From contig CAWAAX010000026.1 of assembly GCA_963780225.1 (NCBI GenBank), forward strand, positions 13,403 through 77,402: a DNA stretch of 64,000 nt, given 5' to 3'. The notes beneath the pieces were generated by a model, which did not search any database, was not told the DNA's origin, and saw only the letters and a list, made by a program, of their open reading frames with translations. The DNA is from an uncultured bacterium (GTDB taxonomy: Bacteria; Edwardsbacteria; AC1; EtOH8). This document shows positions 5,530-27,753 of the stretch, in pieces (position 1 is the first letter of the stretch; each line of letters begins with the position of its first letter). The position numbers and the translations under genes were made by a program.

Positions 5530-5619
5530 TATTTTCACCTCCTTAAATTTAAAATATTAGAATCTTGTACTAATTGTGTATAAATATACAATATATTGTA
5601 TATTTGTCAAGAAAAAAAA

Positions 5620-6007: not shown

Positions 6008-6802
6008 TCAATTATTATTGATGATCTCACGATGGGGGTAGGCCTGTCTTATTCCCCGTTCCAGCAGCAATTTTAAAATGTTTTCGTTCAGGTCGGAAAG
6101 GCTTTGCAGGTAAGCCTCTCCTTTGACCCATAAAAAAAGATCCAGTTTGGTGCCGCTTTCCCCGAAACCCTGTACTACCGTGAATGGATGAGGATCAGGC
6201 AAGGTGTGCTGATAACTGCGGGCTTCAGTTAAAATTATTTTCTTGACCGAAGCTAAATCAACGTCCGATCCCAGCCTAAAACTAAGACTAAGCCGCCGGG
6301 TCTTGTAGCGGGTAAGGTTTACTATTTTATTCTTGATCAGGTTTTCGTTGGGTATCCGGACGTAGAGGTTGTCGAAGGTCCGCAGCTTGGTGGACAGCAG
6401 GTCGATGGAGGTGACCGTGCCCTGTTGGCCCTCGAAGTCTATCACATCATCGATCTCGAAGGGCCGGTCCATCAGCAGGAAGAAGCCGGAGACGATGTTG
6501 GCCACCGAGGTCTGGGCGGCGAAACCCAAAGCCACCGACATGATGCCGGCCGCCGCCAGGATGGCGGTCAGCTTGACGTCAAAGATGTCCAGCACCGCCA
6601 CCAGCACCAGTATAATCACAGCATAATATACTACCTTGCCGATCATCATGGCGGTGTGCTTCTCCGATTTTTGGGCGGCGGCCTTCTCGGCCATCTTGGC
6701 CAGGGCCTTGGCGATGAAGAAACCGATGGCCATTGTGATCAGGCCTTTGACGGCCATGCCGGACTTGAGCCACTCGGGTAGTTGTTGGATGAATTCTTTC
6801 AT
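6008..6802 (-). CDS. Small-conductance mechanosensitive channel (MscS family)
   Basis: N-terminal TM helices and an MscS beta-domain (IDDVIDFEGQQGTVTSIDLLSTKLRTFDNLYVRIPN). I chose the start at internal Met 12, which has an AAGGAG RBS; the ORF track extends it to 6838. Confidence 0.8.
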   Translation of the reverse strand: MKEFIQQLPEWLKSGMAVKGLITMAIGFFIAKALAKMAEKAAAQKSEKHTAMMIGKVVYYAVIILVLVAVLDIFDVKLTAILAAAGIMSVALGFAAQTSVANIVSGFFLLMDRPFEIDDVIDFEGQQGTVTSIDLLSTKLRTFDNLYVRIPNENLIKNKIVNLTRYKTRRLSLSFRLGSDVDLASVKKIILTEARSYQHTLPDPHPFTVVQGFGESGTKLDLFLWVKGEAYLQSLSDLNENILKLLLERGIRQAYPHREIINNN

Positions 6803-6989
6803 GGGGGCTCCTTTTTTGCCACTAAGGCACAAAGGCACAAAGTGTAAATTATGTTGTTCGAAAGGAAATGTATTGTATGAGGCTATGGTTTCTTGTCACA
6901 AAAAATACTTTGAATTGAGCTGAAGGAATGCTAAGTTCCGCAGATTATTTCCCATTTCCCAGTTCCTATTTCCAATTTATTTATTTAGT

Positions 6990-7868
6990 CTACCGATGCA
7001 GTACCCTCTTGGCCAGGGCCGTGCCGCCGGCGCACCAATTCACCAGCCGGCTCCACAGGTCCTGCAGCCAGAACCAGGGGGAATCATGGTCGATTTTGTG
7101 CTTCAGGTCCCACAGGATGTCCGTAACATAGACCCCGCAGCGGCGCAGGGCGAAAAAGTCCGTTAGGTTGTTTTTTATGGGGGGCGAAAAACTGCAGGCC
7201 GAGAGATACCCGGCGTCAAGTGCTGCCTGCTTTACCGCTTCATTGTAAAGCCCGAAGGGGTAGGACAGGGTGGTCACCGGCAGGCCCAGGTTCTGTTCCA
7301 TCACTTTACGTGATCCCGCCAGCTCTTCTCTCAACTGCTCCGGACTTAAAGAACGCAGGTCCCGGTGGTTTTGGGTGTGGGAGCCGAACTCGATCCCGCA
7401 GGCCTGCATCTCCTTCATCTGTTCCCAGCTTAGGTGCCCAAACTTCAATCCGCCCCAGTTGATGTCCCAGTCATTCATTTTTCCTACGTAATCCGTGACC
7501 ACAAAGACGGTGGCGGTGAAGCCGTATTCCTTGAGCAATGGAAAGGCGTGCTGGTAAAGCCCGGCATAAGCGTCGTCAAAGGTCAGACAGAGGTATTTCT
7601 TCCCGCCGCAGTCTCCTTGTCGCATTAGTTCCACGGCCCGGGACAGGGTAACACTTTGGTAACCGTTCCGCTTGAAATAATCCAGATGCCCGGCAAAACG
7701 CTTGGGGGAGATCATGGTTCCGCCCAGCTCCAGCCGGGTATCCACCTTATGATAGGTCAGGATGGGAATGGATCCTTTGGCTGGCGGGCCGAAGCGCGCC
7801 TGCCAGAAAAAGTAGAGCAAAGCCCCGGCCAGGGCGAGTGACATTAGGAATATCATAAATATCTGCAT
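6990..7868 (-). CDS. Polysaccharide deacetylase family protein (NodB homology domain) with an N-terminal TM anchor
   Basis: NodB motif YLCLTFDDAYAGLY plus His-rich downstream motifs, and an N-terminal hydrophobic helix. Confidence 0.75.
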   Translation of the reverse strand: MQIFMIFLMSLALAGALLYFFWQARFGPPAKGSIPILTYHKVDTRLELGGTMISPKRFAGHLDYFKRNGYQSVTLSRAVELMRQGDCGGKKYLCLTFDDAYAGLYQHAFPLLKEYGFTATVFVVTDYVGKMNDWDINWGGLKFGHLSWEQMKEMQACGIEFGSHTQNHRDLRSLSPEQLREELAGSRKVMEQNLGLPVTTLSYPFGLYNEAVKQAALDAGYLSACSFSPPIKNNLTDFFALRRCGVYVTDILWDLKHKIDHDSPWFWLQDLWSRLVNWCAGGTALAKRVLHR

Positions 7869-10724: not shown

Positions 10725-10817
10725 CGATAGGGATTACGATAGGCCATACAATGGGGATTCGATAGCGATACAATTGCAGTCTCAATGTATAACCATCGTA
10801 TAGCAAAGGAAGCTATC

Positions 10818-11384
10818 GTGCTTGACCTGATAGAGTATCTCCGCTCCCTGAACCAAAACTCCCTGATCATCGGGGTGGGCAATCCCCTGAGGGGCGACGA
10901 CGGGTTCGGACCGGCATTGATAGCAGGGCTTAACGGACGGACCGGCATCAGGCTGATGGACGCCGAGGAGATCCCGGAAGCCTTTCTGGATCAGGCGGTC
11001 CAAATGGCCCCGGACAAACTGCTGATCGCCGACGCGGTGGCCCTGGGCGGCCTGCCGGGGGAAGCGGCCCTGATGCCGCCGGAATCGCTGGGGCAGAAGA
11101 TAGCCATCTCCACCCACAACCTGCCGCTGCTGATGTTCATCAAGTTCTTCCGGGAACAAAGCCCCAACACCGAGGTGATGCTGCTGGGGGTTCAGCCCAA
11201 GGGGATAGAGTTCGGGAAGGAGCTGAGCCCGGAGATAAGGAAGACCATAGACAGTTTGGTGGCAATCATACTGACAAGAAACCTAACAGAAGGGCAATTC
11301 TTAACGGTTCAAATGCATAATCATAATACCAAACAGTTTTTCTTTAAAAATTGTTATTCGAATGAGGGTTTGATATACAGTTAG
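10818..11384 (+). CDS. Hydrogenase maturation endopeptidase (HycI/HybD family)
   Basis: Signature LIIGVGNPLRGDDGFGPALI. I chose the GTG start at 10818, which has an AAAGGAAG RBS; the ORF track starts at 10785. Confidence 0.75.
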   Translation: MLDLIEYLRSLNQNSLIIGVGNPLRGDDGFGPALIAGLNGRTGIRLMDAEEIPEAFLDQAVQMAPDKLLIADAVALGGLPGEAALMPPESLGQKIAISTHNLPLLMFIKFFREQSPNTEVMLLGVQPKGIEFGKELSPEIRKTIDSLVAIILTRNLTEGQFLTVQMHNHNTKQFFFKNCYSNEGLIYS

Positions 11385-11427: not shown

Positions 11428-12882
11428 GTGTTACCAATTTTACTATTCACCATGCTGTTGCTGCCCTTTGCCGGGGCGCTGGTCTCGCAGTGGCTGCCGG
11501 AGAAGAGGCAGGACGGCTTTGCCGCAGTCATCGTCAGCCTGGTGACCGCGGCCTCGCTGTGGGCGGTATTCCTGGGGCTGGGCAAAAGCGTTCATTCCAA
11601 CGTCCTGCCTTGGTGGCCGTGGCTGCCTGAGGGCACTGAAGTGATGGGCCTCCATCTGGACCCGCTGTCCATAGTCCTGCTGCTGGTGACCACCATCATC
11701 GGACTGGCGGTGACCTTCTACGCCCGGGACTACCTTACCCCCCAGAACAAGTATCATCCCATTACAGGCGGCAAGAAACGCTTTTACCTGTGGCACCTGT
11801 TGTTCGTGGGCGCCATGGTGGGGGTGGCCCTGTCCCCCAACTTCCTCCAGATGTTCATCTTCTGGGAGCTGACCACCATCTGCTCCTGGGCCCTGATCTC
11901 CTACTACCACGACAGCGAGTCGCTGGAGGCCGGGTTCGAGGCGCTGATCAAGACCTTCTTCGGGGGCATCTTCTTCCTGATCGCCCTGATAGTGCTGTTC
12001 GTCAACACCGGCAGTTTCGGCTTCGACGCCATCAATCTTTTGACCCCCCAGCTGAAGACGGTGGTCTTCATCCTGTTCCTGATAGCGGCCTGGGCCAAGT
12101 CATCCCAGATAGTCTTCTTCGCCTGGCTGCCCAACGCCATGGCCGCGCCCACCCCGGTCTCCTGCTACCTGCACGCGGCCGCCATGGTCAAGGCCGGAGT
12201 TTATCTGATGGCCCGGGTGGCCATCTCCACCGTGGGCTTCTCCTACGGGCTGGGTCTTTTGGTGGCGGTGTTTGCGGTGTTCACCATGCTGGCCGCGCTG
12301 TTCCTGTTCTTCTTCCAGACCGATCTTAAAAAATTCCTGGCCTATTCCACCATCGCCCACCTGGGATACATCTTCCTGGGCATAGGGCTGGGGGTGATGG
12401 GCAGCTACTACGGCTACCAGGGGGCCATCCTTCACATCATCTGCCACGCCCCGGCCAAGGCCCTGCTGTTCATCTGCGTGGGGAACATAGCCTACGCCAC
12501 CGGCACCCGCAACATGGACGAACTGGGCGGCCTGACCAAGACCATGCCGCTGACCTCGATCGCCTTCATCGTGGGAACTTTGGGCGTCACCGGCATCGCC
12601 CCGCTTTCCTGCTACTGGTCAAAACTTTTCCTGATGGAGGGCGTGATAGAGATGGGCGGCAAGACGGCCGTCTTCCTGATCATCCCCTTCGTGGCCGAGA
12701 TCATCATCGCCTTCGCCTGGTATTTCTTCATCGCCCACAAGGTGTTCTTCGGCGAGGCCTCGCCCCGGGTGAACCAGGCCCTTAAACTGCCCATGAACAC
12801 CAAGGTCATCCTGATCGTGCTGATGGTGCTGACCGTGATCGCCCCGCTGGTGGGTTTGCCGCTGGTGAAGTTGATACGGTAA
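11428..12882 (+). CDS. Complex I / Mrp antiporter-like membrane subunit (NuoM/N, MrpD, HyfD-like)
   Basis: 484 aa and polytopic, with the conserved proton-pumping core (WLPNAMAAPTPVSCYLHAAAMVKAGVYL). Confidence 0.8.
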   Translation: MLPILLFTMLLLPFAGALVSQWLPEKRQDGFAAVIVSLVTAASLWAVFLGLGKSVHSNVLPWWPWLPEGTEVMGLHLDPLSIVLLLVTTIIGLAVTFYARDYLTPQNKYHPITGGKKRFYLWHLLFVGAMVGVALSPNFLQMFIFWELTTICSWALISYYHDSESLEAGFEALIKTFFGGIFFLIALIVLFVNTGSFGFDAINLLTPQLKTVVFILFLIAAWAKSSQIVFFAWLPNAMAAPTPVSCYLHAAAMVKAGVYLMARVAISTVGFSYGLGLLVAVFAVFTMLAALFLFFFQTDLKKFLAYSTIAHLGYIFLGIGLGVMGSYYGYQGAILHIICHAPAKALLFICVGNIAYATGTRNMDELGGLTKTMPLTSIAFIVGTLGVTGIAPLSCYWSKLFLMEGVIEMGGKTAVFLIIPFVAEIIIAFAWYFFIAHKVFFGEASPRVNQALKLPMNTKVILIVLMVLTVIAPLVGLPLVKLIR

Positions 12883-12961: not shown

Positions 12962-13981
12962 ATGCATCCTCGTCACTATGTTTTGGGCATGTTCGCGGTT
13001 TTGTTGGCTGTTTGTATGGCATGCCCGCTTAATGCACAAGTAAAACAGCAAGGGACAAAGCAAACTGTTACGGCCAAGCCGGAAACGGTTTACGTGCAGG
13101 CAATCCAGCCAGAAAATACGAAGCAATTGGATAGAACAATAAGTGTTCTTAATATAATTATAACTGCAATTGGTGTTTTAGGTACAATCGTTACGTTGGC
13201 CTTTATGGTTGCAATTGCTCTAGGTTTTTTTGAAATAAACAAGTGGAGGGAGATTAGAGTACAAGCGGAGCAGCATAAAAAAGATGTGCAACAATGCCTT
13301 GAAGATATAAAAAAATATCTAGCTGTTGCAAAACAAGACAAAGACGAAATTAAAAAGACAAAGGAAGAAGCCGACGCTCTAATTGTGGGAATAAAACAAC
13401 TTTCGTTAAAGGAAAAACCATCGAAAGAAGTCAAGGCAAAGCTTGATGAATATGGGAAAAAGATAGAAATGCTTGAAGCCTTGGGTAGCCCATTGACGCC
13501 GGAAAATTATTATAACAAGGGAATTGACTTTTACTACAAAAGCAAATATGAGGTAGCTCTGAGTGCCTTTGAGAAAGCCATAGAACTTAAACCTGTATTT
13601 GCTCAAGCTTGGTGCAACAAAGGTGTCGTACTCAGTGAACTTGGGAATAACGAAGAAGCACTCAAAGCCCATGAGAAGGCCATAGAACTAAATCCAAATT
13701 ATGCCAACGCCTGGGACAATAAGGGCATTGTACTAAGCAAGCTGAAACGATATGGAGATGCACTTAAAGCACATGAGAAAGCAATAGTGATAAAGCCAGA
13801 TTTTGTAAATGCCTGGTTTAATAAGGCTTGTGTTTATTCATTAATGGGCGATAAGCAAAATTCCCTTATAAGTTTAAGCAAAACAATAAAGTTGGATTCT
13901 ACACGCAAAGAAGACGCAAAAAGTGACGAAGATTTTAAGACCCTATGGACAGACCCTGATTTTATAAAACTTGTAAGTTAA
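12962..13981 (+). CDS. TPR-repeat protein with an N-terminal signal/TM and a coiled coil; a low-GC insertion inside the hydrogenase operon
   Basis: Four or five TPR units (AWCNKGVVLSELGNNEEALKAHEKAIELNP, etc.). About 40% GC. Confidence 0.75.
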   Translation: MHPRHYVLGMFAVLLAVCMACPLNAQVKQQGTKQTVTAKPETVYVQAIQPENTKQLDRTISVLNIIITAIGVLGTIVTLAFMVAIALGFFEINKWREIRVQAEQHKKDVQQCLEDIKKYLAVAKQDKDEIKKTKEEADALIVGIKQLSLKEKPSKEVKAKLDEYGKKIEMLEALGSPLTPENYYNKGIDFYYKSKYEVALSAFEKAIELKPVFAQAWCNKGVVLSELGNNEEALKAHEKAIELNPNYANAWDNKGIVLSKLKRYGDALKAHEKAIVIKPDFVNAWFNKACVYSLMGDKQNSLISLSKTIKLDSTRKEDAKSDEDFKTLWTDPDFIKLVS

Positions 13982-13994
13982 ATTAAAGATACAT

Positions 13995-16043
13995 ATGAGC
14001 CTTCAATTCATCATACTCCTTTCCATGGGCTGGCTGCTGGCCGGCGCGGCCATTACCCTGGCCATGCCCTACTCCCGGCGCACCATCGGCTGGGTCTCGC
14101 TCTTCTTCCAGACCCTGGCGGCGGGCGGGTTCGGCTACGTGGCCGTCCAGGTGCTGGCCAACGGGACCTTCAGCCTGGACAAGCCGCTGTTCTCGGTGGC
14201 GGGGCTGGGGGCGGCCTTCCTGCTTAAGGTGGACGCGCTGTCGGCCATATTCCTGCTGGCCATCACCATCGTCTCCTGGGCGGCCGGGCTGTACTCGGTG
14301 CAGTACATCAAGCACTACAAGGAATCGCTGGGCCGCTACTATCCGCTGTTCCTGCTGTTCCTGTTGGGGATGTACGGGGTGGTGGTGGTGCGCGACCTGT
14401 TCTTCTTCATAGTCTTCTGGGAATTCATGACCCTGACCAGCTACGGCCTGGTGGTGTTCGAATGGGGCAACAAGCAGAGCGTCAACGCCGGCTTCAAGTA
14501 TTTCCTGATGACCCACATCGGCACCGCCGGCATCATCATCGCCGCCAACACCCTGTACCACTATTCGCAATCCTTTGACTTTGAGGCCCTGCGCCCGGTG
14601 ATGGCCCTGTTGAGCAGCGAGAACCCGGCCCTGCTGCACACAATCTTATTATTGTTCTTCGTGGGCTTTGCCACCAAGGCCGGCGTCTTCCCCTTCGGCG
14701 ACTGGCTGCCCGACGCCCACCCGGCGGCCCCGGCCCCGGTCAGCGCCATCCTTTCCGGGGTGATGATCAAGATGGGGATCTACGGGATCCTGAGGGTCTT
14801 TTGGGGGATGCTCCCGGTCTCCGACTTCTCCTATGTCTGGGGCACGGTGATGGCGGTGTTCGGCACGGTCTCGCTGTTCATCGGCACCATGACCATCATG
14901 TACCAGACCGACAGCAAGAGGTTCCTGGCCTTCAGCTCGGTGGGCCAGATCGGATACATCCTGCTGGCCGTCGGGGCCGGCCTGATGCTGACCCGGATCT
15001 CCCCGGCTTTGGCCACGGTGGCCCTGGTGGCCGGGCTGTTCCACCTGATCAACCACGCGGCCTTCAAGTCGCTGCTGTTCCTGACCGCCGGCTCGCTCCA
15101 GTATAGGACCGGAACCCGGGACCTGGACAAGATGGGCGGGCTGGCCAAATACATGCCCTGGACCGCCGCGGTGGCCATCATCGCCGCCCTGGGCATCTCC
15201 GGCATTCCTCCCCTCAACGGCTTCGCCAGCAAGTGGCTGATCTACCAGTCCACCATCAACGCCGGTTTCAACACGCCGATACTTCTGCTCTGCGGGCTGA
15301 TCGCCCTGTTCACCAGCCTTCTGACCCTGGCCAGCGTGATGGTAAAATACATCGGCCTGGCCTTTCTGGGCCAGCGCCTGCCCAGTAATAAAGATGTCAA
15401 CAGCGACGTGCCCCGCTCCATGATCTGGGCCCAGGGGATCCTGGCGGCTGTGGTCATCCTGGAGGGCGTGCTGGCCGGGTTCATCGTCCGCGGCCTGTAC
15501 AACGCCGCCAGCGGGCTCTTGACCCCGGACTACTGGCCCCAGTTCGGTTCGTTGTTCCACACGGCCTTCCTGGGCCTGCGCCTCAATTTCGGCGAGGGGC
15601 TGGTGGGCTTCTATAATCCCCTGTTCCTGCTGATCATCCTGGCCGGGCTGGCCTTGATCGCCGTGCTGTTCTGGTGGTCGGGCGGGGCCAAGCGCAGGGT
15701 GGTCTCCGAACTTTGGTACTCGGGCGAACGGCAGTCCCCGGCCTCGGTGCGCTATTCCTCCAGCAGCTACTTCAAGACCTTCAAGCAGAATTTCAACATC
15801 CGGATCGGCAAGTACACCCTGGAAGGCGTTTACCCCAAGTGGCCGTCGGTAAAGTTCAAGAAATCATTCAAACTCAAATACCTGCTGGACGTGGACAGCT
15901 GGCTGTACCGGCCCCTGGCCTTTTTGGGCCACAAGGCGCTGGAGATCTTCGCCGGCACACACAGCGGGTTCCCGCAGTGGTATCTGCTGTGGATGGTTAT
16001 CGGCGCGGCGGCGGCCATGCTGGTGATGTTTTTGGTGAGGTAG
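13995..16043 (+). CDS. NuoL/MrpA/HyfB-like large antiporter-type membrane subunit
   Basis: 682 aa (E. coli HyfB is 672 aa). Conserved core FPFGDWLPDAHPAAPAPVSAILSGVMIKMGIYG. Confidence 0.8.
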   Translation: MSLQFIILLSMGWLLAGAAITLAMPYSRRTIGWVSLFFQTLAAGGFGYVAVQVLANGTFSLDKPLFSVAGLGAAFLLKVDALSAIFLLAITIVSWAAGLYSVQYIKHYKESLGRYYPLFLLFLLGMYGVVVVRDLFFFIVFWEFMTLTSYGLVVFEWGNKQSVNAGFKYFLMTHIGTAGIIIAANTLYHYSQSFDFEALRPVMALLSSENPALLHTILLLFFVGFATKAGVFPFGDWLPDAHPAAPAPVSAILSGVMIKMGIYGILRVFWGMLPVSDFSYVWGTVMAVFGTVSLFIGTMTIMYQTDSKRFLAFSSVGQIGYILLAVGAGLMLTRISPALATVALVAGLFHLINHAAFKSLLFLTAGSLQYRTGTRDLDKMGGLAKYMPWTAAVAIIAALGISGIPPLNGFASKWLIYQSTINAGFNTPILLLCGLIALFTSLLTLASVMVKYIGLAFLGQRLPSNKDVNSDVPRSMIWAQGILAAVVILEGVLAGFIVRGLYNAASGLLTPDYWPQFGSLFHTAFLGLRLNFGEGLVGFYNPLFLLIILAGLALIAVLFWWSGGAKRRVVSELWYSGERQSPASVRYSSSSYFKTFKQNFNIRIGKYTLEGVYPKWPSVKFKKSFKLKYLLDVDSWLYRPLAFLGHKALEIFAGTHSGFPQWYLLWMVIGAAAAMLVMFLVR

Positions 16044-16133
16044 AACCTTAGACGGGATTAACATGATTTTCAAAACTTGGAGGTTAACTTCGACAGAAGA
16101 TCATCAATCAACAAGATTCTTTGGAGAAACATA

Positions 16134-16397
16134 ATGAAACTCCGGCTGGCATTAGTGGTCTTAGCGATGATGTTTACCAGTGCCTACGCTGATTTTGCGG
16201 AAGATTCTACAGCAGCACAACCGGTCGTACAGAAAACCACCGATTCATTACGGCAGTCGAATACTTGGCCCGGCACATATCATATTTGCTCTGTTGGACT
16301 GGGGAAGTACAGCCCGCGTCCGTACTTTTCGTATACGCCAGTCGGGATAAAGAACTGCTCAATGTCTTGCCGGAATCCAGTATTCGTCTGGTTTTAG
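16134..16397 (+). CDS. Small secreted hypothetical protein
   Basis: GGAG RBS and the signal peptide MKLRLALVVLAMMFTSAYA. No homology is recognisable. Confidence 0.3.
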   Translation: MKLRLALVVLAMMFTSAYADFAEDSTAAQPVVQKTTDSLRQSNTWPGTYHICSVGLGKYSPRPYFSYTPVGIKNCSMSCRNPVFVWF

Positions 16398-16891
16398 GTA
16401 TGGCCGTGACCGACAGGGTAGACCTGCTGGCGAACATTGACGGAGGGTATTTGCAGTGTGGGACTAAGCACCGGGTACGTTTCACCGCACAATTTCAGGC
16501 TCAGGCCTTGGGATCCGGTATAATTTTGGATCACGACAGGTGGATGTTTCCATACATTGCGCCTAATGTTGCCGAGGCGATTCTGAGATGAGGTACAGCA
16601 ACTAAGAATTATTCATTCATGTTTATTGCAAATAGGATTCGTACGGAGAACTGAGAAGCCACCTGGTATTAGCTGCGGATCGAGATACGCGGGGACTGAT
16701 ATCCGGCCGTGCACAATCATTTTACGCAAGCCGGATGAAATGGCTGTTAGGGATTTCTACGAATGGCGGTATAATTCATCATATATTGCAAGATACTTAT
16801 AATGAAGGGCAAGAGGTTCCAATAATGCTTTGCAGACAGTTAACCTTTCAACAATGGCAACATAAAGCAACATCTTAAACAAAGGGATACA

Positions 16892-18208
16892 ATGACCAAA
16901 CAGGAAATACTCTCTTTACTAAAGGCCAAGCTGGGCACCGGATTCATCGCCCACAGCGAGCCTATTCCCGACCAGCTGTGGGTGGAGGTCAAGCCCCAGG
17001 CCTCGGTCCAGGCCGTGGAGATACTGCACCGCACCACCAAGGCCCGCTATCTGGTGAGCGTGGGCTCGGACGAGCGGGAGCTAAAGAAGCGCTTCGGGGT
17101 CTACCACCTGTTCAGCTTTGACAAAGAACACTTCTTCGTCACCATCGACGTCTCGGCCGACCCCCACAAGCCGGTGCTGCCCTCCATCACCAACGTCATC
17201 GCCGGGGCCAACTGGTCGGAGCGGGAGATCCGCGATCTGTTGGGCGTGCAGTTCGAGGGCCATCCCGATCCCCGGAGATTAGTTCTGGCCGATGACTGGC
17301 CGAACGAGGTCTATCCGCTGCGCCGGGACTTCGACTACAGTTCCAAGCCGCCCTCCAACCCGGAGAACGCCTATCCCTTCAAGGACAACCCGCCCAACAC
17401 CACGGTGGTGGCCATGGGGCCGTATTTCCCGGTGTTCGAGGAAGCCACCTATTTCCGGCTGTACGTCGAGGGCGAAAAGGTGGTGGACGTGGACTACCGC
17501 GGATTTTACGCCCACCGGGGCATAGAAAAACTGGGCGACGCTTCGCTGACCTACAACCAGATACCCTTCATCGCCGAGCGGATCTGCGGTATCTGCGGCT
17601 TCGTCCACAACGTCTCCTTCTGCAAATTAGTGGAACACGCGGCCGGGATCAAGGTCCCGCGCCGGGCCGACTACATAAGAACCATCATGCTGGAGCTGGA
17701 GCGCATCCATTCCCACGCCCTGTGGCTGGGGGTGGCCGGGCACATCATCGGCTTTGACACCGTGCTGATGCAGACCTGGCGGATGCGGGAGCCCATCATG
17801 TGGCTGTGCGAAAAGCTGACCGGCAACCGCAAGACCTACGGCATGAACCTGATCGGCGGGGTGCGCCGGGACATCACCAAGGCCCAGGTGCCCGAGGTCC
17901 GCAAAAAGATCGACGCCATGGACAAGGAATGGCAGGCGGTGCTGGACGCCGTCAAGGACGACACCACATTAAGAATGAGATTAGAGAAGGTGGGGATCCT
18001 CAACCGCGAGCAGAGCCACGAGTGGGCGGCAGTGGGCCCGGTGGCCCGGGCGGCCGACATCGACATGGACTCCCGCAAGGACCATCCCTACTGCGCCTAC
18101 GACGCGGTGGATTTCAAGGTGATCACCGCCGACACCAACGACGTCTGGGGCCGGACCGTGGTCCGGATCCTGGAAACAATCGAATCGTTCAAGATCGTCC
18201 GCCAATGA
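16892..18208 (+). pseudogene. Truncated tandem duplicate of the 5' 1.3 kb of the hydrogenase large-subunit gene
   Basis: 16892-18205 is near-identical to 18205-19518, with a few synonymous or conservative differences. The junction ..GTCCGCCA|ATGACCAAACAGG creates a TGA, so the copy ends before the C-terminal Ni-binding motif. Confidence 0.7.
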
Positions 18209-19884
18209 CCAAACAGGAAATCCTCTCTTTACTAAAGGCCAAGCTGGGCACCGGATTCATCGCCCACACCGAGCCTATTCCCGACCAGCTGTGGGTGGAG
18301 GTCAAGCCCCAGGCCTCGGTCCAGGCCGTGGAGATACTGCACCGCACCACCAAGGCCCGCTACTTAGTGAGCGTGGGCTCGGACGAGCGGGAGCTAAAGA
18401 AGCGCTTCGGGGTCTACCACCTGTTCAGCTTTGACAAAGAACACTTCTTCGTCACCATCGACGTCTCGGCCGATCCCCACAAGCCGGTGCTGCCCTCCAT
18501 CACCAACGTCATCGCCGGGGCCAACTGGTCGGAGCGGGAGATCCGCGATCTGCTGGGCGTGCAGTTCGAGGGCCATCCCGATCCCCGGAGATTAGTTCTG
18601 GCCGATGACTGGCCGAACGAGGTCTATCCGCTGCGACGGGACTTTGACTACAGCTCCAAACCGCCCTCCAACCCGGAGAACGCCTATCCCTTCAAGGACA
18701 ACCCGCCCAACACCACGGTGGTGGCCATGGGGCCGTATTTCCCGGTCTTTGAAGAGGCCACTTACTTCCGGCTGTACGTCGAGGGCGAGAAGGTGGTGGA
18801 CGTGGACTACCGCGGATTTTACGCCCACCGGGGGATAGAAAAACTGGGCGACGCTTCGCTGACCTACAACCAGATACCCTTCATCGCCGAGCGGATCTGC
18901 GGCATCTGCGGCTTCGTCCACAACGTCTCCTTCTGCAAGCTGGTGGAGCACGCGGCCGGGATCAAGGTCCCGCGCCGGGCCGATTACATCCGGACCATCA
19001 TGCTGGAGCTGGAGCGCATCCATTCCCACGCCCTGTGGCTGGGGGTGGCCGGGCACATCATCGGCTTCGACACCGTGCTGATGCAGACCTGGCGGATGCG
19101 GGAGCCCATCATGTGGCTGTGCGAAAAACTGACCGGCAACCGCAAGACCTACGGCATGAACCTGATCGGCGGGGTGCGCCGGGATATCACCAAAGCCCAG
19201 GTGCCCGAGGTCCGCAAAAAGATCGACGCCATGGACAAGGAATGGCAGGCGGTGCTGGACGCCGTCAAGGATGATACCACATTAAGAATGAGGCTGGAGA
19301 AGGTGGGGATCCTCAACCGCGAGCAGAGCCACGAGTGGGCGGCGGTGGGCCCGGTGGCCCGGGCGGCCGACATCGACATGGACTCCCGCAAGGACCATCC
19401 CTACTGCGCCTACGACGCGGTGGACTTCAAGGTGATCACCGCCGACACCAACGATGTCTGGGGCCGGACCGTGGTCCGGATCCTGGAGACCATCGAATCG
19501 TTCAAGATCGTCCGCCAGTGTCTGGACGCTTTAATGGAACTGCCGGAGGGCGACATCATCACCGAGATCCGGGACGAGATCCCGGCCGGGCGGATAGCCA
19601 TCTCGGCTGTCGAAGCGCCCCGGGGCGAGGACGTCCACTTCCTGCTGACCGGCGGAGACAACCGGCCCTACCGCTGGCGGGTGCGGTGCCCAACATATCC
19701 CAACTTGCCCACCGTGCAGGTGATGGTCAAGGGCGAGCAGGTGGCCGACGTGCCGATCATCCTGGGCTCCATCGATCCCTGCTTCAGCTGCACCGAGCGG
19801 ATGGAGGTCTGCGACCTGTCAACAGGCAAGGTCAGGATCTACAGCCAGGAGGAACTGTTTAACTGGACCGCCAAGCGCAGTTAG
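18205..19884 (+). CDS. hyfG: [NiFe]-hydrogenase large subunit, group 4, with fused NuoC-NuoD domains (HyfG/HycE-like)
   Basis: 559 aa. The N-terminus is NuoC-like (WSEREIRDLLGVQFEGHPD). It carries the proximal Ni-binding motif RICGICGFVH and the distal motif DPCFSCTERMEV. Confidence 0.85.
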   Translation: MTKQEILSLLKAKLGTGFIAHTEPIPDQLWVEVKPQASVQAVEILHRTTKARYLVSVGSDERELKKRFGVYHLFSFDKEHFFVTIDVSADPHKPVLPSITNVIAGANWSEREIRDLLGVQFEGHPDPRRLVLADDWPNEVYPLRRDFDYSSKPPSNPENAYPFKDNPPNTTVVAMGPYFPVFEEATYFRLYVEGEKVVDVDYRGFYAHRGIEKLGDASLTYNQIPFIAERICGICGFVHNVSFCKLVEHAAGIKVPRRADYIRTIMLELERIHSHALWLGVAGHIIGFDTVLMQTWRMREPIMWLCEKLTGNRKTYGMNLIGGVRRDITKAQVPEVRKKIDAMDKEWQAVLDAVKDDTTLRMRLEKVGILNREQSHEWAAVGPVARAADIDMDSRKDHPYCAYDAVDFKVITADTNDVWGRTVVRILETIESFKIVRQCLDALMELPEGDIITEIRDEIPAGRIAISAVEAPRGEDVHFLLTGGDNRPYRWRVRCPTYPNLPTVQVMVKGEQVADVPIILGSIDPCFSCTERMEVCDLSTGKVRIYSQEELFNWTAKRS

Positions 19885-19942: not shown

Positions 19943-20329
19943 GTGATGACGATAAAGAATTTTGAAGATCTAAAAATATGGCAAGTAGCCAAACAGTTAA
20001 CAAAACAGGTTTATTCGGCAGTCAACTTACAGAAATATAACCGGGATTATTCACTGGTTGACCAGACAAGGCGGGCATCGGTTTCAATCATGGCCAATAT
20101 CGCTGAAGGTTTTGAAAGGGAGAACAACAAGGAGTTCATTCAATACTTGTATATTGCCAAAGGATCTTGCGGGGAGTTGAGGAGCCATTTGTGGATCGCT
20201 CAGGAATTGATGTTTCTGACCGAGGTTGAAGGTAAAACTTTAAGAGAAGAAGCTGCCGGGCTATCAATCATGATTGCAAAGTTGATAATGTACCTAAAAA
20301 CCTCGCCCATTAAGGGATTCAAACAGTAA
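19943..20329 (+). CDS. Four-helix-bundle protein (23S rRNA intervening-sequence protein / Avd-like family), copy 1
   Basis: 128 aa with ..RDYSLVDQTRRASVSIMANIAEGFER..EFIQYLYIAKGSCGELRSHL... About 40% GC. It lies in the spacer between hyfG and the NuoH-like gene. Confidence 0.85.
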   Translation: MMTIKNFEDLKIWQVAKQLTKQVYSAVNLQKYNRDYSLVDQTRRASVSIMANIAEGFERENNKEFIQYLYIAKGSCGELRSHLWIAQELMFLTEVEGKTLREEAAGLSIMIAKLIMYLKTSPIKGFKQ

Positions 20330-20339
20330 GGGTGGTTTA

Positions 20340-21230
20340 ATGATCAGAATAGCAATAATGATATTTGTCCTATTGTTCGTCTCGCCGCTGCTGGAAGGCA
20401 TCCTGCGCAAGTTCAAGGCGCTGGTGCACTCCCGGATCGGGCCGCCGCTGCTGCAGCCGTACTGGGACATCCTTAAGCTTTTGGGCAAGGACGACGTTCG
20501 TTCGCCCCACGCTTTCCTGGGGCCGCTGCCGGCCTTTTTGGGCCTGGCCGCCATTCTGGCCGCCGGCCTGCTGGTGCCGCTGGGAAACAGCGCGCCCTTC
20601 GCCAGCGGAGATCTCTTCCTGTTCCTCTACCTGATCAGCTTCGCCTCGGTCTGCGTGATGCTGGCCGGCATGGACTCCGGCTCGCCCTACGGCTTTTTGG
20701 GCACCGCCCGGGAGATGATGACCTCGTTCGTGGTGGAACCGGTGCTGTTCATCGCCCTGATCACCGTGGCCATCAAGACCCGCAACTTCCGCTTCTCCGA
20801 CATGGCGGCCTACCAGCAGATCTCCGGAACCTCGCTTTCCACCATAATTTCAGGGCTGGCGCTGTTCCTGGGGATCCAGGCCCAGCTTTCCAAACTGCCA
20901 TTCGACATCCCCGAGGCCGAGGGAGAGTTGATGGGCGGCACCTTCGCCGAGATGTCCGGCCCGACCTTCGCCCTGTACCGCTGGGGCTTCATCGCCAAGC
21001 AGGTGATATTCTCCATGATCCTGGCCCAGTTGTTCTTCCCCTGGCCTTTGGGCTTGGTTGGCCTGTGGGCGGTGGTAGCCCAGATAGCCAAAGTGATCCT
21101 GATCGTGGTGCTGGTGGGGCTGATCGACGTGGTCAACCCCCGGCTGAGGATCGATCAGGCTATCGTCTACTATTTTGGGGTGATATTGATGGCTATCGTG
21201 GGGTTGGTCTTCGCACTGGTGGGAGCCTGA
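20340..21230 (+). CDS. NuoH/HyfC/HycD-like membrane subunit
   Basis: 296 aa and polytopic (E. coli HyfC is 315 aa). Its position and hydrophobicity fit a NuoH-type subunit. Confidence 0.75.
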   Translation: MIRIAIMIFVLLFVSPLLEGILRKFKALVHSRIGPPLLQPYWDILKLLGKDDVRSPHAFLGPLPAFLGLAAILAAGLLVPLGNSAPFASGDLFLFLYLISFASVCVMLAGMDSGSPYGFLGTAREMMTSFVVEPVLFIALITVAIKTRNFRFSDMAAYQQISGTSLSTIISGLALFLGIQAQLSKLPFDIPEAEGELMGGTFAEMSGPTFALYRWGFIAKQVIFSMILAQLFFPWPLGLVGLWAVVAQIAKVILIVVLVGLIDVVNPRLRIDQAIVYYFGVILMAIVGLVFALVGA

Positions 21231-21242: not shown

Positions 21243-21715
21243 AGTTTACAATTTACAGTTTAAAAGTTTGTTTGAATAACGCAAGGAGGTTTGTATGGGT
21301 ACGTTCAGAAAGTTTGAGGACATTACCGCTTGGCAAAAAGCGCGCGAGTTGACAAAGTTGGTTTACGAAATCACTAAGGACGGAAGTTTTTCAAAGGATT
21401 TTGGCCTGCGAGATCAAATAAGAAGAGCCGCTGTTTCTATGATGTCCAACATTGCAGAAGGGTTTGACAGGGGCGGCAGAAAAGAATTTATTCAGTTTTT
21501 ATCAATAGCCAAAGGCTCCACTGGCGAGGTCAAAAGCCAATTGTATATCGCATTGGACCAAAATTACATTACCAAAGATTTATTCGATAAAACATTTTCC
21601 TTGGCAGAGGAAGTCAATCGTTTGATCTTTAGTTTGATAAAGTACCTGGGAAATACTGAAATTAAGGGAATAAAATATAAAGTTAACTGATTACAATAAC
21701 TGTAAATTGTAAACA
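21243..21715. mobile_element. Four-helix-bundle gene cassette (copy 2), flanked by inverted repeats
   Basis: AGTTTACAATTTACAG at 21243-21258 and its inverse CTGTAAATTGTAAAC at 21701-21715 bracket the 4HB ORF. A related GTTTACAATTTACG lies upstream of copy 1 at 19921. Confidence 0.4.
21295..21690 (+). CDS. Four-helix-bundle protein (23S rRNA IVS/Avd-like), copy 2
   Basis: 131 aa with ..KDFGLRDQIRRAAVSMMSNIAEGFDR..EFIQFLSIAKGSTGEVKSQL.., a paralogue of copy 1. Confidence 0.85.
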   Translation: MGTFRKFEDITAWQKARELTKLVYEITKDGSFSKDFGLRDQIRRAAVSMMSNIAEGFDRGGRKEFIQFLSIAKGSTGEVKSQLYIALDQNYITKDLFDKTFSLAEEVNRLIFSLIKYLGNTEIKGIKYKVN

Positions 21716-21733: not shown

Positions 21734-22201
21734 ATGATACTATCAAAGATAAAAGAAGCCATCATCTGCTTCAAGAACCTGAGGGTCACCTTTCCCTATC
21801 CCCTGAAGCGGAACATCGAGGCCCTGCCGGTGGAGGGATTCCGGGGCAAGCTGACCATTGACGTGTCCAAGTGCATTGGCTGCGCCGGCTGCGCCAACGT
21901 CTGCCCCTCGCGGCTGATCATCGTCACCGACAAGAAGGCGGTGCGCCGGCTGGACTTTTACCTGGAGCGCTGCACCTACTGCGGGCGCTGCGCCGACGTC
22001 TGCCCGGAGAAGGCCATTACCATGACCCAGGAGTTCGAGACCGCGACCAACGACGTCCACAACGACATGCACATCAGCGCCGAGGTCTACATGGGAACCT
22101 GCCAGCGCTGCGGAAGATGCTTCGAAACCCAGACCATTCTGGACAAGATGATGACCGTGGGGTTCAGGAATGGCGGGCAGGGAGAGGTGCTTAACGATTG
22201 A
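21734..22201 (+). CDS. 2x[4Fe-4S] ferredoxin-type subunit (NuoI/HyfH/HycF-like)
   Basis: CIGCAGCANVCP and CTYCGRCADVCP motifs. 155 aa. Confidence 0.8.
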   Translation: MILSKIKEAIICFKNLRVTFPYPLKRNIEALPVEGFRGKLTIDVSKCIGCAGCANVCPSRLIIVTDKKAVRRLDFYLERCTYCGRCADVCPEKAITMTQEFETATNDVHNDMHISAEVYMGTCQRCGRCFETQTILDKMMTVGFRNGGQGEVLND

Positions 22202-22387: not shown

Positions 22388-22750
22388 GTGAGTATGGAAT
22401 TGAAATTCGAGAAACTGGAAGTATGGCGGATATCGCTGGAATGCATAGATAAGGTCTATGCGCTTTTGGAAAAATATCCCCGGTCCGAAGAATATATCCT
22501 AAAACAGCAAGGCAAGCGCTCCATAACCTCGGTCTCTCTGAACATTGCCGAAGGCAGCTGCAAGCACACCCAAAGGGAATTTGCCTATTTTGTAAATATT
22601 TCCATAGGCTCCCTGGTGGAAACCCTGGCCAATCTGAAAATAGGTCTGCAAAGAAAATACATCACTGACGCAGACTTTAAAGGCATTGAGCCCTTGCTGG
22701 ATAAAATGTATTTCAAGCTGATGGCTCTGGAAAAGGCCCTGCGGAAATAG
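22388..22750 (+). CDS. Four-helix-bundle protein (23S rRNA IVS/Avd-like), copy 3 (more diverged)
   Basis: 120 aa with ..KRSITSVSLNIAEGSCKHTQREFAYFVNISIGSLVETLANL... Low GC. Confidence 0.8.
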   Translation: MSMELKFEKLEVWRISLECIDKVYALLEKYPRSEEYILKQQGKRSITSVSLNIAEGSCKHTQREFAYFVNISIGSLVETLANLKIGLQRKYITDADFKGIEPLLDKMYFKLMALEKALRK

Positions 22751-22970: not shown

Positions 22971-23633
22971 ATGGGTGATCTAATCACAACCTTAATGGTC
23001 TGCCACTTCATAGCCTCGGTGGGCGCGGCCGAGATCAGGAACCTCAAGACCTCCACCATATTCCTGATGCTGCAGTCCCTGCTGTTGGCCCTGATCATTG
23101 CGGCCTTTGCCGGGCGCAGCCAGAACTACTCGCTTTACTGGTGGGTGGCTTTGACCGTGGCCACCAAGGTCATCATCATCCCCTGGCTGCTGTGGGTCCA
23201 CATCAAGAAGACCCAGGTGATGGAGATCAAGCCCCTGGTCAGCTTCGTGGTCTCGTTCATAGTGCTGGCCATCTTCCTGGTGGCCTTCTACCAGATGATC
23301 CACACCTACGCCAACTTCGTGGCCCCCACCGCGGCGGCGGCGGCGGAACCGGCCCGTTCGGCCCTGGCCCTTTCCTTCACCATCTTTGTGCTGGGGCTTT
23401 ACGTGCTGGTGATCCACCGGGACGCGGTCAAGATAATCATCGGCCTGCACCTGATAGAGAACGGCGTGCACCTGGCCCTGGTGACCCTGGTTCCCCAGCT
23501 GCCGGTGACCACCATCCTGGGCATCGTCTCCAACGTGGTGGTGGCCGCGGTGATGCTGCTGTTTTTAACCGACAGCATCTACAAGGCCTTCGGATCTTCC
23601 GATACCTTAAAACTCTCCAGCCTGAAGGGCTGA
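22971..23633 (+). CDS. HyfE-like (hydrogenase-4 component E) / NuoK-like membrane subunit
   Basis: 220 aa with six TM helices (E. coli HyfE is 216 aa). Assigned by context within the Hyf cluster. Confidence 0.55.
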   Translation: MGDLITTLMVCHFIASVGAAEIRNLKTSTIFLMLQSLLLALIIAAFAGRSQNYSLYWWVALTVATKVIIIPWLLWVHIKKTQVMEIKPLVSFVVSFIVLAIFLVAFYQMIHTYANFVAPTAAAAAEPARSALALSFTIFVLGLYVLVIHRDAVKIIIGLHLIENGVHLALVTLVPQLPVTTILGIVSNVVVAAVMLLFLTDSIYKAFGSSDTLKLSSLKG

Positions 23634-24370: not shown

Positions 24371-25897
24371 ATGGTCGTTACTATCAATCCCACCGCGGTC
24401 TCGATCCTGCCGTTCCTGGTGTTCATGGTTCCCCTGTTCTTCGGGGGCCTGATCTTCGCCCTGGGCCGGTACGGCAAGTTCTTCCGGCAGGGTTTGGCCC
24501 TGATCGGGATCTTCGCCACCCTGGCCATCTCGGTGATGATGACCGGCCGGGTGCTGGGCGGCGAGGTGCTGACCTGGTGGAACAACAATTTCTACATCGA
24601 CGGCCTGGCCACCCTGATGGAACTGGCGGCCAGCGGGCTGGGGGCCATCGTGGTGGTCTACTCCATCTACTATTTCTCGGAGAAGACCGAGGCCGCCGAG
24701 GCCCACCCCTACACCAGCATGACCAGCTATTACGGGCAGATCATGGTCTTTTTGGGGCTGATGAACTGGACCTGCGCCACCAACAACATCATCATGATGT
24801 ACGTCTCGCTGGAGTTCACCACCCTGGCCACGGTGTTCCTGGTGACCTTTCACTGGAACAAACAGGCCTTGGAGGCCGGTTACAAGTATCTTCTCCTGGT
24901 CACGGTGGGCGTGATCTTCGCCCTGCTGGGCTCGGTCCTGCTCTACGCTGCGGCCATTCCCTACCTGCCGGTGTCAAGGGTCCTGCTTTTGACCGAGCTG
25001 GGGACCATTGCCACCAAGATACCAACTAACATCGTGCTTTTGGCCTCGGCCTTCCTGGTGGTCGGCTTCGGCACCAAAGCCGGGCTGGTGCCCTTCCACG
25101 CCTGGCTGCCGGACGCCCACGCCGAGGCCCCGGCCCCGGTAAGCGCTCTGCTTTCCGGCATCGTCATCAAAGTGGGGGCCTACGCCCTGGCCCGCACCAT
25201 CTCGGTCTTTGCCCCGCACTACGGCACCATCCCGCTGTTCATCGCCATTCTCTGCTCCATCTCCATGATCGTGGGAATGATGATGGCCATGATCCAGGAC
25301 GACCTGAAGCGGATGCTGGCCTACTCGTCAGTCGCTCAGATCGCCTACGTCATCGAGGGCCTGGGAATGGGAACCTACCTGGGTATCTACGGCGGCCTGA
25401 TGCACCTGCTGAACCATTCCATCGTCAAGGGCCTGCTGTTCCTGGCGGTGGGGGCGCTGATCTACGCCACCGGCAAGCGCAAGGTGTCCGAGTTGTCAAA
25501 GATCAAATTGAACATGCCCATCACCGCCTTCGCCTTTTTCGTGGGCATCTTCGCCCTGTCCGGGATGCCGCCCTTCAACGGCTTCGTCTCAAAATTCACC
25601 CTGTTCCTGGCGGTGGGACAGGCCAATCTTTTGTGGGCGGCTATCATCGGCATCATCACCTCGCTGTTCACTTTGGTCTGCTTCTTCAGGGCCGGGTACA
25701 AAATATTCTGGTCGCCCAAGGAAGTGCATGCTGTCGGCGCCGAAGCCACCACCGCCACCGAGGTCCCGGCCGGGATGTGGGTGGGCATGGTGATACTGGC
25801 CGTGGCGGCCATAGTGCTGGGGGTGTTCCCCCAGATAGTGCACCCGCTGTTGGACAGTGCCACCAAGTGCATTTTGAGGATCCTGATCGGAGGGTAA
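24371..25897 (+). CDS. NuoN/MrpD/HyfF-like antiporter-type membrane subunit
   Basis: 508 aa with FHAWLPDAHAEAPAPVSALLSGIVIKVGAYA. Confidence 0.8.
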   Translation: MVVTINPTAVSILPFLVFMVPLFFGGLIFALGRYGKFFRQGLALIGIFATLAISVMMTGRVLGGEVLTWWNNNFYIDGLATLMELAASGLGAIVVVYSIYYFSEKTEAAEAHPYTSMTSYYGQIMVFLGLMNWTCATNNIIMMYVSLEFTTLATVFLVTFHWNKQALEAGYKYLLLVTVGVIFALLGSVLLYAAAIPYLPVSRVLLLTELGTIATKIPTNIVLLASAFLVVGFGTKAGLVPFHAWLPDAHAEAPAPVSALLSGIVIKVGAYALARTISVFAPHYGTIPLFIAILCSISMIVGMMMAMIQDDLKRMLAYSSVAQIAYVIEGLGMGTYLGIYGGLMHLLNHSIVKGLLFLAVGALIYATGKRKVSELSKIKLNMPITAFAFFVGIFALSGMPPFNGFVSKFTLFLAVGQANLLWAAIIGIITSLFTLVCFFRAGYKIFWSPKEVHAVGAEATTATEVPAGMWVGMVILAVAAIVLGVFPQIVHPLLDSATKCILRILIGG

Positions 25898-26015: not shown

Positions 26016-27176
26016 ATGAAGAAGATAACGGCAATTCTCTTAATGGCAGGTGCCCTGGCAACCATGGTGTTCTCGGGCTGCGGGCCGGGCGGCCAGCAGA
26101 TCAAGATCGGGGTGGCCGGGCCGCTGACCGGCGAGCAGGGCAAGGCCGGCCAGGACCTGCTGCACGGGGTGCAGCTGGCGGTCTCCGAGTGCAATGCCCG
26201 GGGCGGGGTGCTGGGCAAGCGGGTGGTGATCATCGCCGGGGACGACCGGGCCGATGAAAAGGAGGCCAATGCCATAGCCCAGCGACTGTGCGACCAGGGG
26301 GTGGCCGGAGTGGTGGGGCACTACAACAGCCACTGCTCCATCGCCGGCAGCCGGATCTACAACCAGAGGATGATCCCCCAGATCACGCCTTCGTCCACCA
26401 ACCCCAGGTTCACCCAGCAGGGGTTTGACAACGTGTTCCGGACCTGCGGCCGCGACGACCAGCAGGGCAGGATAGCCGCCGACTACGCCTTCAACGTCAT
26501 GAAGGTCAAGAAAGTGGCCATCTTCTCCGACGGCACCACCTATGGGCTGGGGCTGGCCGAAGAGTTCAAAAAATCAATTCTCCTTTACAACAAACCCAAG
26601 GCGGTGGAAGTGACCATAGTGGCCGACGCCCAGATCCAGATGATCACCGAAGGCAAGGCCCCGGACTACGGCCCGCTGCTGGATCCCTTGATCAGCTACC
26701 AGCCCGACCTTATCTATTTCGGCGGCAGTTACCCCGAAGGGGCCATGCTGATCCGGCAGATCAAGGAACGCCGGCTGGCGGCGGCCTTCATGTCCGGCGA
26801 CGCCATCGCCAATTCGGAGCTGATCAAGCGGGGCGGAGTGGCCACCGAGGGAATATACTTCACCTTCGGCCCGGCGGTGGAGGACATGCCCCAGGCCGGC
26901 AGGTTCTACGATTCCTTCAAGGCCCGCTACGGCGAGCTGGGGCCCTACTCGGTCTACGCCTACGATGCGGCCACCGTGCTGCTGAAGAGCATAGAACTGG
27001 CCGGGACCACTAGCGGGGATTCCCTGGTCAAGGTGATTCATTCCGCCAAGTTCGCCGGAGCCATGGGCGAGCTGGAGTTTGACGGGAACGGGGACATCAA
27101 GGCCGCACCCTACGTGCTGTGGACGGTGAAGGGCGGGGAGTTCAAACCGGTCAAGGCGGAGACCCCGTTACAATAG
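26016..27176 (+). CDS. Periplasmic substrate-binding protein, branched-chain amino acid ABC transporter (LivJ/LivK-like, type I PBP); a lipoprotein
   Basis: Signal peptide with Cys (MVFSGCGPG). GVAGPLTGEQGKAGQDLLHGVQLAVSECNARGGVLGKRVVIIAGDD is typical of type I PBPs. Confidence 0.75.
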   Translation: MKKITAILLMAGALATMVFSGCGPGGQQIKIGVAGPLTGEQGKAGQDLLHGVQLAVSECNARGGVLGKRVVIIAGDDRADEKEANAIAQRLCDQGVAGVVGHYNSHCSIAGSRIYNQRMIPQITPSSTNPRFTQQGFDNVFRTCGRDDQQGRIAADYAFNVMKVKKVAIFSDGTTYGLGLAEEFKKSILLYNKPKAVEVTIVADAQIQMITEGKAPDYGPLLDPLISYQPDLIYFGGSYPEGAMLIRQIKERRLAAAFMSGDAIANSELIKRGGVATEGIYFTFGPAVEDMPQAGRFYDSFKARYGELGPYSVYAYDAATVLLKSIELAGTTSGDSLVKVIHSAKFAGAMGELEFDGNGDIKAAPYVLWTVKGGEFKPVKAETPLQ

Positions 27177-27270: not shown

Positions 27271-27753
27271 ATGTTCCTGAAAAAACTTTGCGCCAAGGCC
27301 TTCCCCAAGTCGCTGTGGATCTATCACGTCAACACCGGGTCCTGCAACGGCTGTGACATCGAGATCGTGGACGTGATCACCCCCTATTACGACGCCGAGC
27401 GCTTCGGGATCAAGCTGGCCGGAAGCCCCCGCCACGCCGACATCATGCTGGTGTCCGGGCCGGTGACCAGGCAGGCCCTGCCGTCCTTAAAGCGGGCCTA
27501 CGAGGCCATCCCCGACCCCAAGATCGTGATCGTGGTGGGCTCCTGCGGGGCCGGCGGCAACCTGTGGTTTGACACCTATAACGTCACCGGCGGGGTGGAC
27601 AAGGTGATCCCGGTCAACTACTACATCCCGGGCTGCCCGCCCCGGCCCGAGGCCATCCTCTACGGCGTGGCAGTGGCCCTGGGGCTGGCCCCCAAGAAGG
27701 TTAAGGGCGAGGAGTCGGTGGAAGGGCCGATAAGGGAGGGAATGTGGAAATGA
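27271..27753 (+). CDS. hyfI: [NiFe]-hydrogenase small subunit, NuoB-like (HyfI/HycG/EchC-type)
   Basis: Four Cys for the proximal 4Fe-4S cluster (SCNGCD, GSCGAGG, GCPPRP). 160 aa. Confidence 0.85.
   Translation: MFLKKLCAKAFPKSLWIYHVNTGSCNGCDIEIVDVITPYYDAERFGIKLAGSPRHADIMLVSGPVTRQALPSLKRAYEAIPDPKIVIVVGSCGAGGNLWFDTYNVTGGVDKVIPVNYYIPGCPPRPEAILYGVAVALGLAPKKVKGEESVEGPIREGMWK

Follow-up and report, generated by a model that had tools for sequence, protein, structure and literature searches.

Two apparently pre-existing alleles in tandem at the 5′ end of a HycE-type hydrogenase gene on an Edwardsbacteria contig

On contig CAWAAX010000026.1 of the uncultured Edwardsbacteria assembly GCA_963780225.1, a gene for the large subunit of a [NiFe]-hydrogenase, similar to hycE of Escherichia coli, has its first 1.3 kb present twice in tandem, so that the intact gene is preceded by a truncated version of itself. 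How did this arrangement come about, and is the truncated version a gene in its own right? We analyzed a 64,000-nt stretch of the contig (positions 13,403 to 77,402, forward strand; hereafter the window, to which all coordinates refer unless a locus is named). The first-pass annotation of the window regarded the repeat as a recent duplication whose copies had since acquired a few substitutions. We find 42 substitutions, and their nature indicates that the copies were separate alleles, carried in intact genes of different strains, before they were joined. The join itself may be a young event in a cell.

Structure of the repeat and its junction

The repeat was mapped in a self-comparison of the window with an offset of 1313 bases, and its boundaries were fixed base by base. 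At this offset 25–30 of every 30 bases are identical over 16890–18204, with a background of ~25% on both sides. Between the copies there are 42 substitutions without a single indel (96.8% identity). A 1.3-kb repeat with 97% identity cannot have arisen by chance, and this tandem is the only high-identity repeat in the window. The parts of the locus, including its two open reading frames (ORFs), are:

16565–16891, + strand: native upstream flank, homologous to the flank of single-copy relatives (blastn, 5716–7316 of locus L001 against 16565–18207 of the window)
16890–18202, + strand: repeat copy 1, 1313 bp, made up of 2 bp before the ATG and codons 1–437 of the hycE-like gene, with the native flank on its upstream side
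18203–19515, + strand: repeat copy 2, 1313 bp, running uninterrupted into the remainder of the gene
18201–18208, + strand: novel junction CC/CAATGA, with a 2-bp CA microhomology at 18203–18204 (base-by-base comparison)
16892–18208, + strand: ORF1, 438 aa, with a NuoC-like domain and the first two thirds (from the N terminus) of the NuoD-like/[NiFe] large-subunit domain
18205–19884, + strand: ORF2, 559 aa, an intact HycE-type (group 4) [NiFe]-hydrogenase large subunit

The tandem duplication of the gene's 5′ end is therefore confirmed. The microhomology is exactly 2 bp long, the CA at 19516–19517 being the same as that at 18203–18204; beyond the end of the repeat, the gene tail reads ...CAGTGTCTGG (also written ...CCAGTGTCTGGACG). 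The unit length is of the form 3n+2 and copy 1 ends in ...CGC CAA TGA. As the first-pass annotation had observed, the ATG of the second copy lies across the TGA of the first: the ORF1 stop codon (18206–18208) and the ORF2 start codon (18205–18207) overlap in an ATGA at 18205–18208, and the second copy is intact. Native flanks are present on both sides of the tandem and the sequence is otherwise collinear. The window contains no Ns, and there is no gap at or near the junction.

The single-nucleotide polymorphisms (SNPs) between the copies are at most 108 bp apart; among those that tell the copies from each other are C in copy 2 at gene positions 18 and 65, and A in copy 1 at 1284 and 1287. We also considered the distances from the junction to the nearest SNP as a trace of an assembler's k-mer size, and dropped the idea since they are inconsistent (20 nt on one side and 25–27 nt on the other). 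The upstream flank at 16565–16891 contains a degraded remnant, with in-frame stops, of a PF05635 "23S rRNA IVS protein" gene (tblastn with the IVP protein of L001); in relatives the PF05635 gene upstream of hycE is intact. Promoter, terminator, and Rfam scans found nothing relevant.

Coding capacity of the two reading frames

ORF2 matches PF00329 (NuoC-like), PF00374 (NiFeSe_Hases), and PF00346 (NuoD-like), and its residues 18–558 align with E. coli formate hydrogenlyase subunit 5 (HycE, PDB 7Z0S chain E; E = 3.6e-133). It carries both Ni-Fe cysteine motifs, RICGICGFVH (18892–18921, residue 230) and DPCFSCTER (19774–19800, residue 524), and is 98% identical to the single-copy proteins of relatives. 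The alignment with HycE (7Z0S/7Z0T chain E; group 4, with a fused NuoC-like N terminus) is end to end, and the likeness extends to the NuoC and NuoD-like domains, both Ni motifs, the C-terminal extension, and an operon with hycI, HycD-, HycF-, and HycG-like genes and antiporter-like partners. ORF2 is thus predicted to be an ordinary HycE-type group 4 large subunit, agreeing with that type in all defining features tested (domains, motifs, and operon). It differs in being accompanied by a fragment of the ORF1 type, which is seen neither with hycE of E. coli nor among the relatives examined.

ORF1 matches PF00329, PF00374, and part of PF00346 (profile positions 2–154 of 271). It has the first motif (RICGICGFVH, 17579–17608) and lacks both the C-terminal DPCxxC and the HycI cleavage site; the earlier description of a 438-aa NuoC plus N-terminal NuoD fragment is correct. 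It stops at residue 437 (roughly HycE residue 458), with ~120 residues of the fold missing. Taken alone, ORF1 would not qualify as HycE-type, the second cysteine motif being absent. A protein without two of the four Ni-Fe cysteine ligands cannot, by established [NiFe]-hydrogenase chemistry, hold the metal centre. HycI processes the C terminus of the large subunit, and only ORF2 has that C terminus.

The ribosome-binding regions are divided the other way around. ORF1 retains the native one (AAAGGGATACA ATG). ORF2 lacks a Shine-Dalgarno region of its own, being preceded by coding sequence of copy 1: the bases before it read ...AAGATCGTCCGCCA, where the native sequence is ...AAAGGGATACA.

Nature of the differences between the copies

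Of the 42 differences, 41 are synonymous. The sole amino acid change is at codon 22 (AGC/ACC), with Ser22 in copy 1 and Thr22 in copy 2; this is the HSEP/HTEP difference that had been picked out at first reading. By the Nei-Gojobori method, the copies have dS = 0.147 and dN = 0.001, giving an omega of 0.007 across 437 codons. In the absence of constraint, about 77% of changes are expected to be nonsynonymous, and the probability of observing one or fewer among 42 is 5e-25. Given this 41:1 ratio, the divergence must have arisen within functional full-length genes. The differences are also clustered (17 adjacent gaps of ≤9 nt, compared with eight expected; P = 0.0002).

These data bear directly on the first-pass account of the locus, in which one allele was recently duplicated in situ and its copies then diverged by point mutation. 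The tandem layout with its microhomology junction is what such an event would leave. However, a truncated copy free of constraint should have collected mostly nonsynonymous changes, and the clustering resembles that of recombination tracts and not of scattered mutation.

Copy 1 shows no sign of decay. Changes private to one copy number four in copy 1 and nine in copy 2, all of them synonymous, and there is no stop or indel; neither raised dN/dS, nor internal stops, nor frameshifts were found in copy 1 beyond the junction. Four private changes, none of them disabling, leave copy 1 with essentially no evolutionary time as a free-running fragment, and it appears to be truncated by the junction alone. 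The suggestion that copy 1 is a pseudogene therefore holds in one sense and fails in another: it fits a fragment that was dead on arrival, and does not fit a gene in decay.

Some of the synonymous differences are two-nucleotide codon swaps (CTG/TTA and AGA/CGG), which seemed odd at 3% divergence. They are explained as whole alleles that are common to other strains or to the outgroup.

Comparison with alleles of other strains

We aligned both copies with the single-copy genes of three close strains (L001, L011, and L035) and two outgroups (L012 and L018). Over the 1313 bp, copy 1 and copy 2 differ at 50 and 64 sites from L001 and at 57 and 61 sites from L011, respectively. Against L001, copy 1 has a dS of 0.16 and copy 2 one of 0.22; the synonymous distance between the copies is thus as large as that from strain to strain, which is difficult to reconcile with a duplication that is both in situ and recent.

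At 21 of the 42 sites that differ between the copies, both states are present among L001, L011, and L035; at third codon positions, such sites are 4.5-fold enriched (Fisher P = 4e-5). At five sites (65, 160, 162, 441, and 630, which include the Ser22 codon), the state found in copy 1 only is that of the outgroup, so a derived duplicate would need five reversions. The affinities of the clusters switch along the gene: copy 2 matches L011 and L035 at 543–561, and L035 together with the outgroup at 780–789 and 1089–1092. Evidence for recombination in this gene is abundant, with a Hudson-Kaplan Rmin of 15 in 1.3 kb (five sequences) and 717 out of 1225 site pairs failing the four-gamete test.

Two further loci were compared. 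L041, from an unrelated Joint Genome Institute (JGI) metagenome and with the downstream gene order of the window, differs from copy 1 at 39 sites and from copy 2 at 38; over the stretch compared, the copies are 36 apart. L073 carries the window-type upstream flank and is thereby the positional equivalent of copy 1, yet it is nearer to copy 2 (16 differences vs. 20).

Judged by their sequences, the two copies are shown to be distinct, pre-existing alleles of a heavily recombining Edwardsbacteria/UBP2 gene pool. Two observations pull toward in situ duplication followed by mutation: The copies are each other's nearest sequences by a small margin (42 differences, against 50–64 to other alleles), and at sites 234, 237, 528, and 651, they have in common states that occur in no other sampled allele. 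Against the excess of synonymous changes, the states present in other strains, the required reversions, the clustering, and the strain-level dS, these carry little weight; we see hardly any chance that this account is correct, and the sequence comparison essentially refutes it. A perfect match of either copy to a sampled strain allele would have proved a chimera, but there is none: The nearest alleles are 3%–4% away.

A recombination breakpoint at the end of the repeat was suspected from an apparent identity of the gene tail to L001 of just 86.7%. The excess of differences is in the last roughly 100 bp and comes partly from an indel register shift, with no step at 1313, and the candidate was rejected.

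Distribution of the gene and of the tandem

The ORF1 and ORF2 proteins are recorded on a single NCBI/ENA contig of 251,996 bp. Ten loci with a 98%-identical protein, from a UBA metagenome-assembled genome (MAG), JGI metagenomes, and Logan assemblies, have one gene copy each, as do about twenty further relatives from genome and metagenome collections. All of the ~30 related loci are therefore single-copy, and they include close relatives with flanks like those of the window. The junction, searched for as the degenerate 31-mer AARATHGTNCGNCAATGACNAARCARGARAT, has no match among genome contigs and metagenome contigs, and the top 120 database clusters contain no homolog of about 438 aa except for fragments at contig ends. 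ORF1 is not a conserved gene, the two-gene arrangement being absent from these related loci.

The first-pass annotation had proposed that the truncated product might act as a dominant-negative or scaffold fragment. In its fullest form, this would mean that the duplication is old and that cells make the truncated NuoC plus NuoD(N) protein, with its translation coupled to that of the full-length subunit, and retain it by selection as, for example, a scaffold or regulator. The low omega and the absence of stops and indels from copy 1 are what selection on such a protein would produce, the native ribosome-binding region is kept, and an ATGA overlap is typical of coupled genes. However, the fragment is missing from every related locus, including those with window-like flanks, and there is no positional orthology: L073 is nearer to copy 2, and L041 is equidistant. 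The low omega is fully explained by alleles that evolved inside intact genes, where each variant was filtered by selection; no selection on the truncated ORF is needed. The product would also lack half of the four cysteine ligands of the Ni-Fe centre and about 120 residues of its fold, and has no homolog of its size in the top 120 database clusters apart from contig-end fragments. We regard an old, maintained fragment as very unlikely. More improbable still is a genuine ORF1 protein, made from its native ribosome-binding site with ATGA coupling and kept by selection as a scaffold or negative regulator in hydrogenase assembly; none of the ~30 related loci has the structure, and we found no support for such a role.

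More generally, divergence of tandem copies at synonymous sites only need not imply selection on both, since the juxtaposition of functional alleles suffices.

The DNA of the hycE-like gene is 100% identical in 11 contigs (L001–L010 and L015; e.g., L001 6001–7680) that come from different projects, namely, the UBA MAG, several JGI metagenomes, and Logan assemblies of five Sequence Read Archive runs. The flanks of these identical alleles differ slightly (L001 type vs. L002 type). One allele is therefore very widely distributed.

Origin of the join

The join occurs on this contig alone, and copy 1 is undecayed; the join is therefore either very young or made in silico. We lean, at roughly even probability, toward a real join, made in a cell by a microhomology-mediated event, private to this lineage, very young, and uniting two pre-existing alleles. 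Everything observed is compatible with one non-homologous join, at the 2-bp CA, that links gene position 1313–1315 of one allele to position –2/+1 of another. It could have formed by either of two routes. In the first, DNA from a co-occurring strain would have been integrated illegitimately, in the manner of homology-facilitated illegitimate recombination (HFIR). In the second, a fresh tandem duplication would have occurred, and its copies would later have received different strain variants; in a variant of this route, the fresh copies would be identical, and the variants of a co-occurring strain would have been threaded into one of them by the assembler. In either case, ORF2 would be the working large subunit, translated through ATGA stop-start coupling, and ORF1 a fragment dead on arrival, capable neither of NiFe ligation nor of maturation by HycI. 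Its fate would be loss by recombination between the copies, or decay.

Several features favor a join in a cell. There are no Ns at the junction, and a microhomology is present there. An overlap of only 2 bp provides no k-mer overlap, and a de Bruijn–graph assembler would need reads that contain the junction. The SNPs are spaced at 108 bp or less, close enough for a genuine tandem of two alleles to assemble without difficulty. Thanks to the ATGA layout, the intact copy can still be translated although the native ribosome-binding region has been lost to it. The arrangement also resembles tandem duplications formed at microhomologies and by HFIR in being head-to-tail with a single novel junction of short microhomology, and a copy with a foreign allele fits the homologous anchor and illegitimate end of the latter (PMC6382021). 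Fresh duplications have identical copies, whereas here 3.2% of sites differ by alleles of the population.

The competing explanation is an artifact of assembly or library preparation, a heterotype (here strain-type) false duplication: two strains would each have one intact gene, and their 5′ segments would have been tandemized by scaffolding, gap closing, contig merging, a chimeric long read, or a chimera of multiple displacement amplification. The genome would then have one normal gene and no ORF1. To this we give a somewhat less than even chance. The first-pass annotation held that the differences between the copies make an assembly artifact unlikely, but the argument runs the other way: Differences specific to haplotypes or strains are characteristic of heterotype false duplications (Ko et al. 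2022, PMC9516828), and strain-type variants are the only differences here. What the differences rule out is trivial duplication of identical sequence, not an artifact. Comparable errors are documented, both in that study and for MAG scaffolds (Chen et al. 2020, PMC7111523): In each, two adjacent allelic versions appear as paralogs and give a false partial gain of a gene, and the latter study reports duplicate sequence at scaffold joins in IDBA-UD and CLC assemblies, and artificial concatenation. The undecayed state of copy 1, and the presence of the tandem in one MAG contig when all relatives are single-copy, are also expected of an artifact. Moreover, the start of copy 2 practically coincides with the ATG. 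Homology between strains sets in at this point (upstream regions vary by strain), and contigs tend to break there. On the other side, heterotype false duplications usually come with an assembly gap or unsupported sequence and with half read depth, and no N gap separates the copies here. The 2-bp junction offers a graph assembler no overlap to follow, the 1.3-kb overlap far exceeds the duplicate sequence typical of scaffold joins, and there is no second such duplication in the window.

A number of points weigh against a join in a cell. A RecA-proficient cell would not be expected to maintain a 1.3-kb repeat of 97% identity stably. The first base of copy 2 is no more than 2 bp from the start codon; this amounts to ~3 positions out of hundreds and would be an unlikely coincidence for a random breakpoint in a cell unless selection had filtered the outcome. 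The microhomology is itself weak evidence: By our own calculation, about 16% of random blunt joins show 2 bp or more. In HFIR, diverged or foreign DNA is joined through one homologous anchor and a short microhomology joint, but the documented joints use 3–10 bp of microhomology (PMC6382021), compared with 2 bp here. Metagenome assemblers do produce local duplication and concatenation errors (PMC7111523), and adjacent duplicates with strain-type differences are the expected appearance of a false heterotype duplication (PMC9516828). Finally, the tandem is seen in one MAG contig alone, and exact-protein look-up of ORF1, ORF2, and three neighboring proteins found no independent assembly of the strain.

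Whichever applies, the event is of a known kind, either a tandem duplication of the microhomology/HFIR type or a heterotype false duplication, and it represents no new system and no new gene. Annotation pipelines will call an additional 438-aa "NADH-quinone oxidoreductase subunit C" or hydrogenase from this MAG; the call is suspect, since it may reflect a fresh by-product or an error of assembly. Should the join be real, the locus would capture inter-strain recombination at a merodiploid intermediate stage in an uncultured candidate phylum, and would be of modest population-genetic interest.

The hydrogenase operon and other features of the window

The partners of ORF2 in the operon are:

10785–11384, + strand: HycI-type maturation protease gene (PF01750)
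11428–12882, 13995–16043, and 24371–25897: three antiporter-like subunits (PF00361)
20340–21230, + strand: HycD/NuoH-like membrane subunit (PF00146)
21734–22201: 2x[4Fe-4S] subunit, HycF-like (Fer4)
22971–23633: NuoK-like subunit (Pfam scan)
27271–27753: NuoB-like small subunit, HycG-like (PF01058)

The NuoB-like gene is parted from the other hydrogenase genes by a periplasmic solute-binding protein gene (26016–27176), which is unusual for a core subunit. Just upstream of hycI, a gene of the PD-(D/E)XK nuclease family (PF13366, 9437–9817) lies between a Fer4_22 gene and an FAD/NAD oxidoreductase gene.

The spacers of the operon contain small PF05635 (four-helix-bundle) genes, whose positions vary by strain:

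19943–20329, 21295–21690, and 22388–22750: PF05635 genes in the window, in addition to the remnant within 16565–16891
5566–5985 and 8862–9275 of L001, and 10024–10380 of L002: PF05635 genes in relatives

Around hycE, the window has one such gene after it and the stop-riddled remnant before it, while L001 has an intact one before and none after. The pattern suggests that a small mobile or selfish gene is polymorphic for insertion and loss within the operon. Between two of the antiporter-like genes, the window has a gene for a 339-aa tetratricopeptide-repeat protein (12962–13981), where L001–L007 have an unannotated ORF of 178 aa; this would therefore be another strain-specific swap within the operon.

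In the 850 bp upstream of copy 1, there is a small ORF (16135–16397) with a signal-peptide-like N terminus (MKLRLALVVLAMMFTSAYA...) and no Pfam match. L073 has this upstream stretch as well (84.5% identity to 15971–16528), which is therefore a real feature of the sub-lineage.

Further downstream, an intergenic module is repeated with about 76% identity (35850–36021 and 38817–38982), before two large, consecutive genes at 36022–38667 and 38983–40653, respectively. In this module, a GC-rich hairpin precedes a T-run (AGCCCCGTTAACGCGGGGCTTTTTT), after which the sequence is AT-rich; it looks like a duplicated terminator-plus-promoter region.

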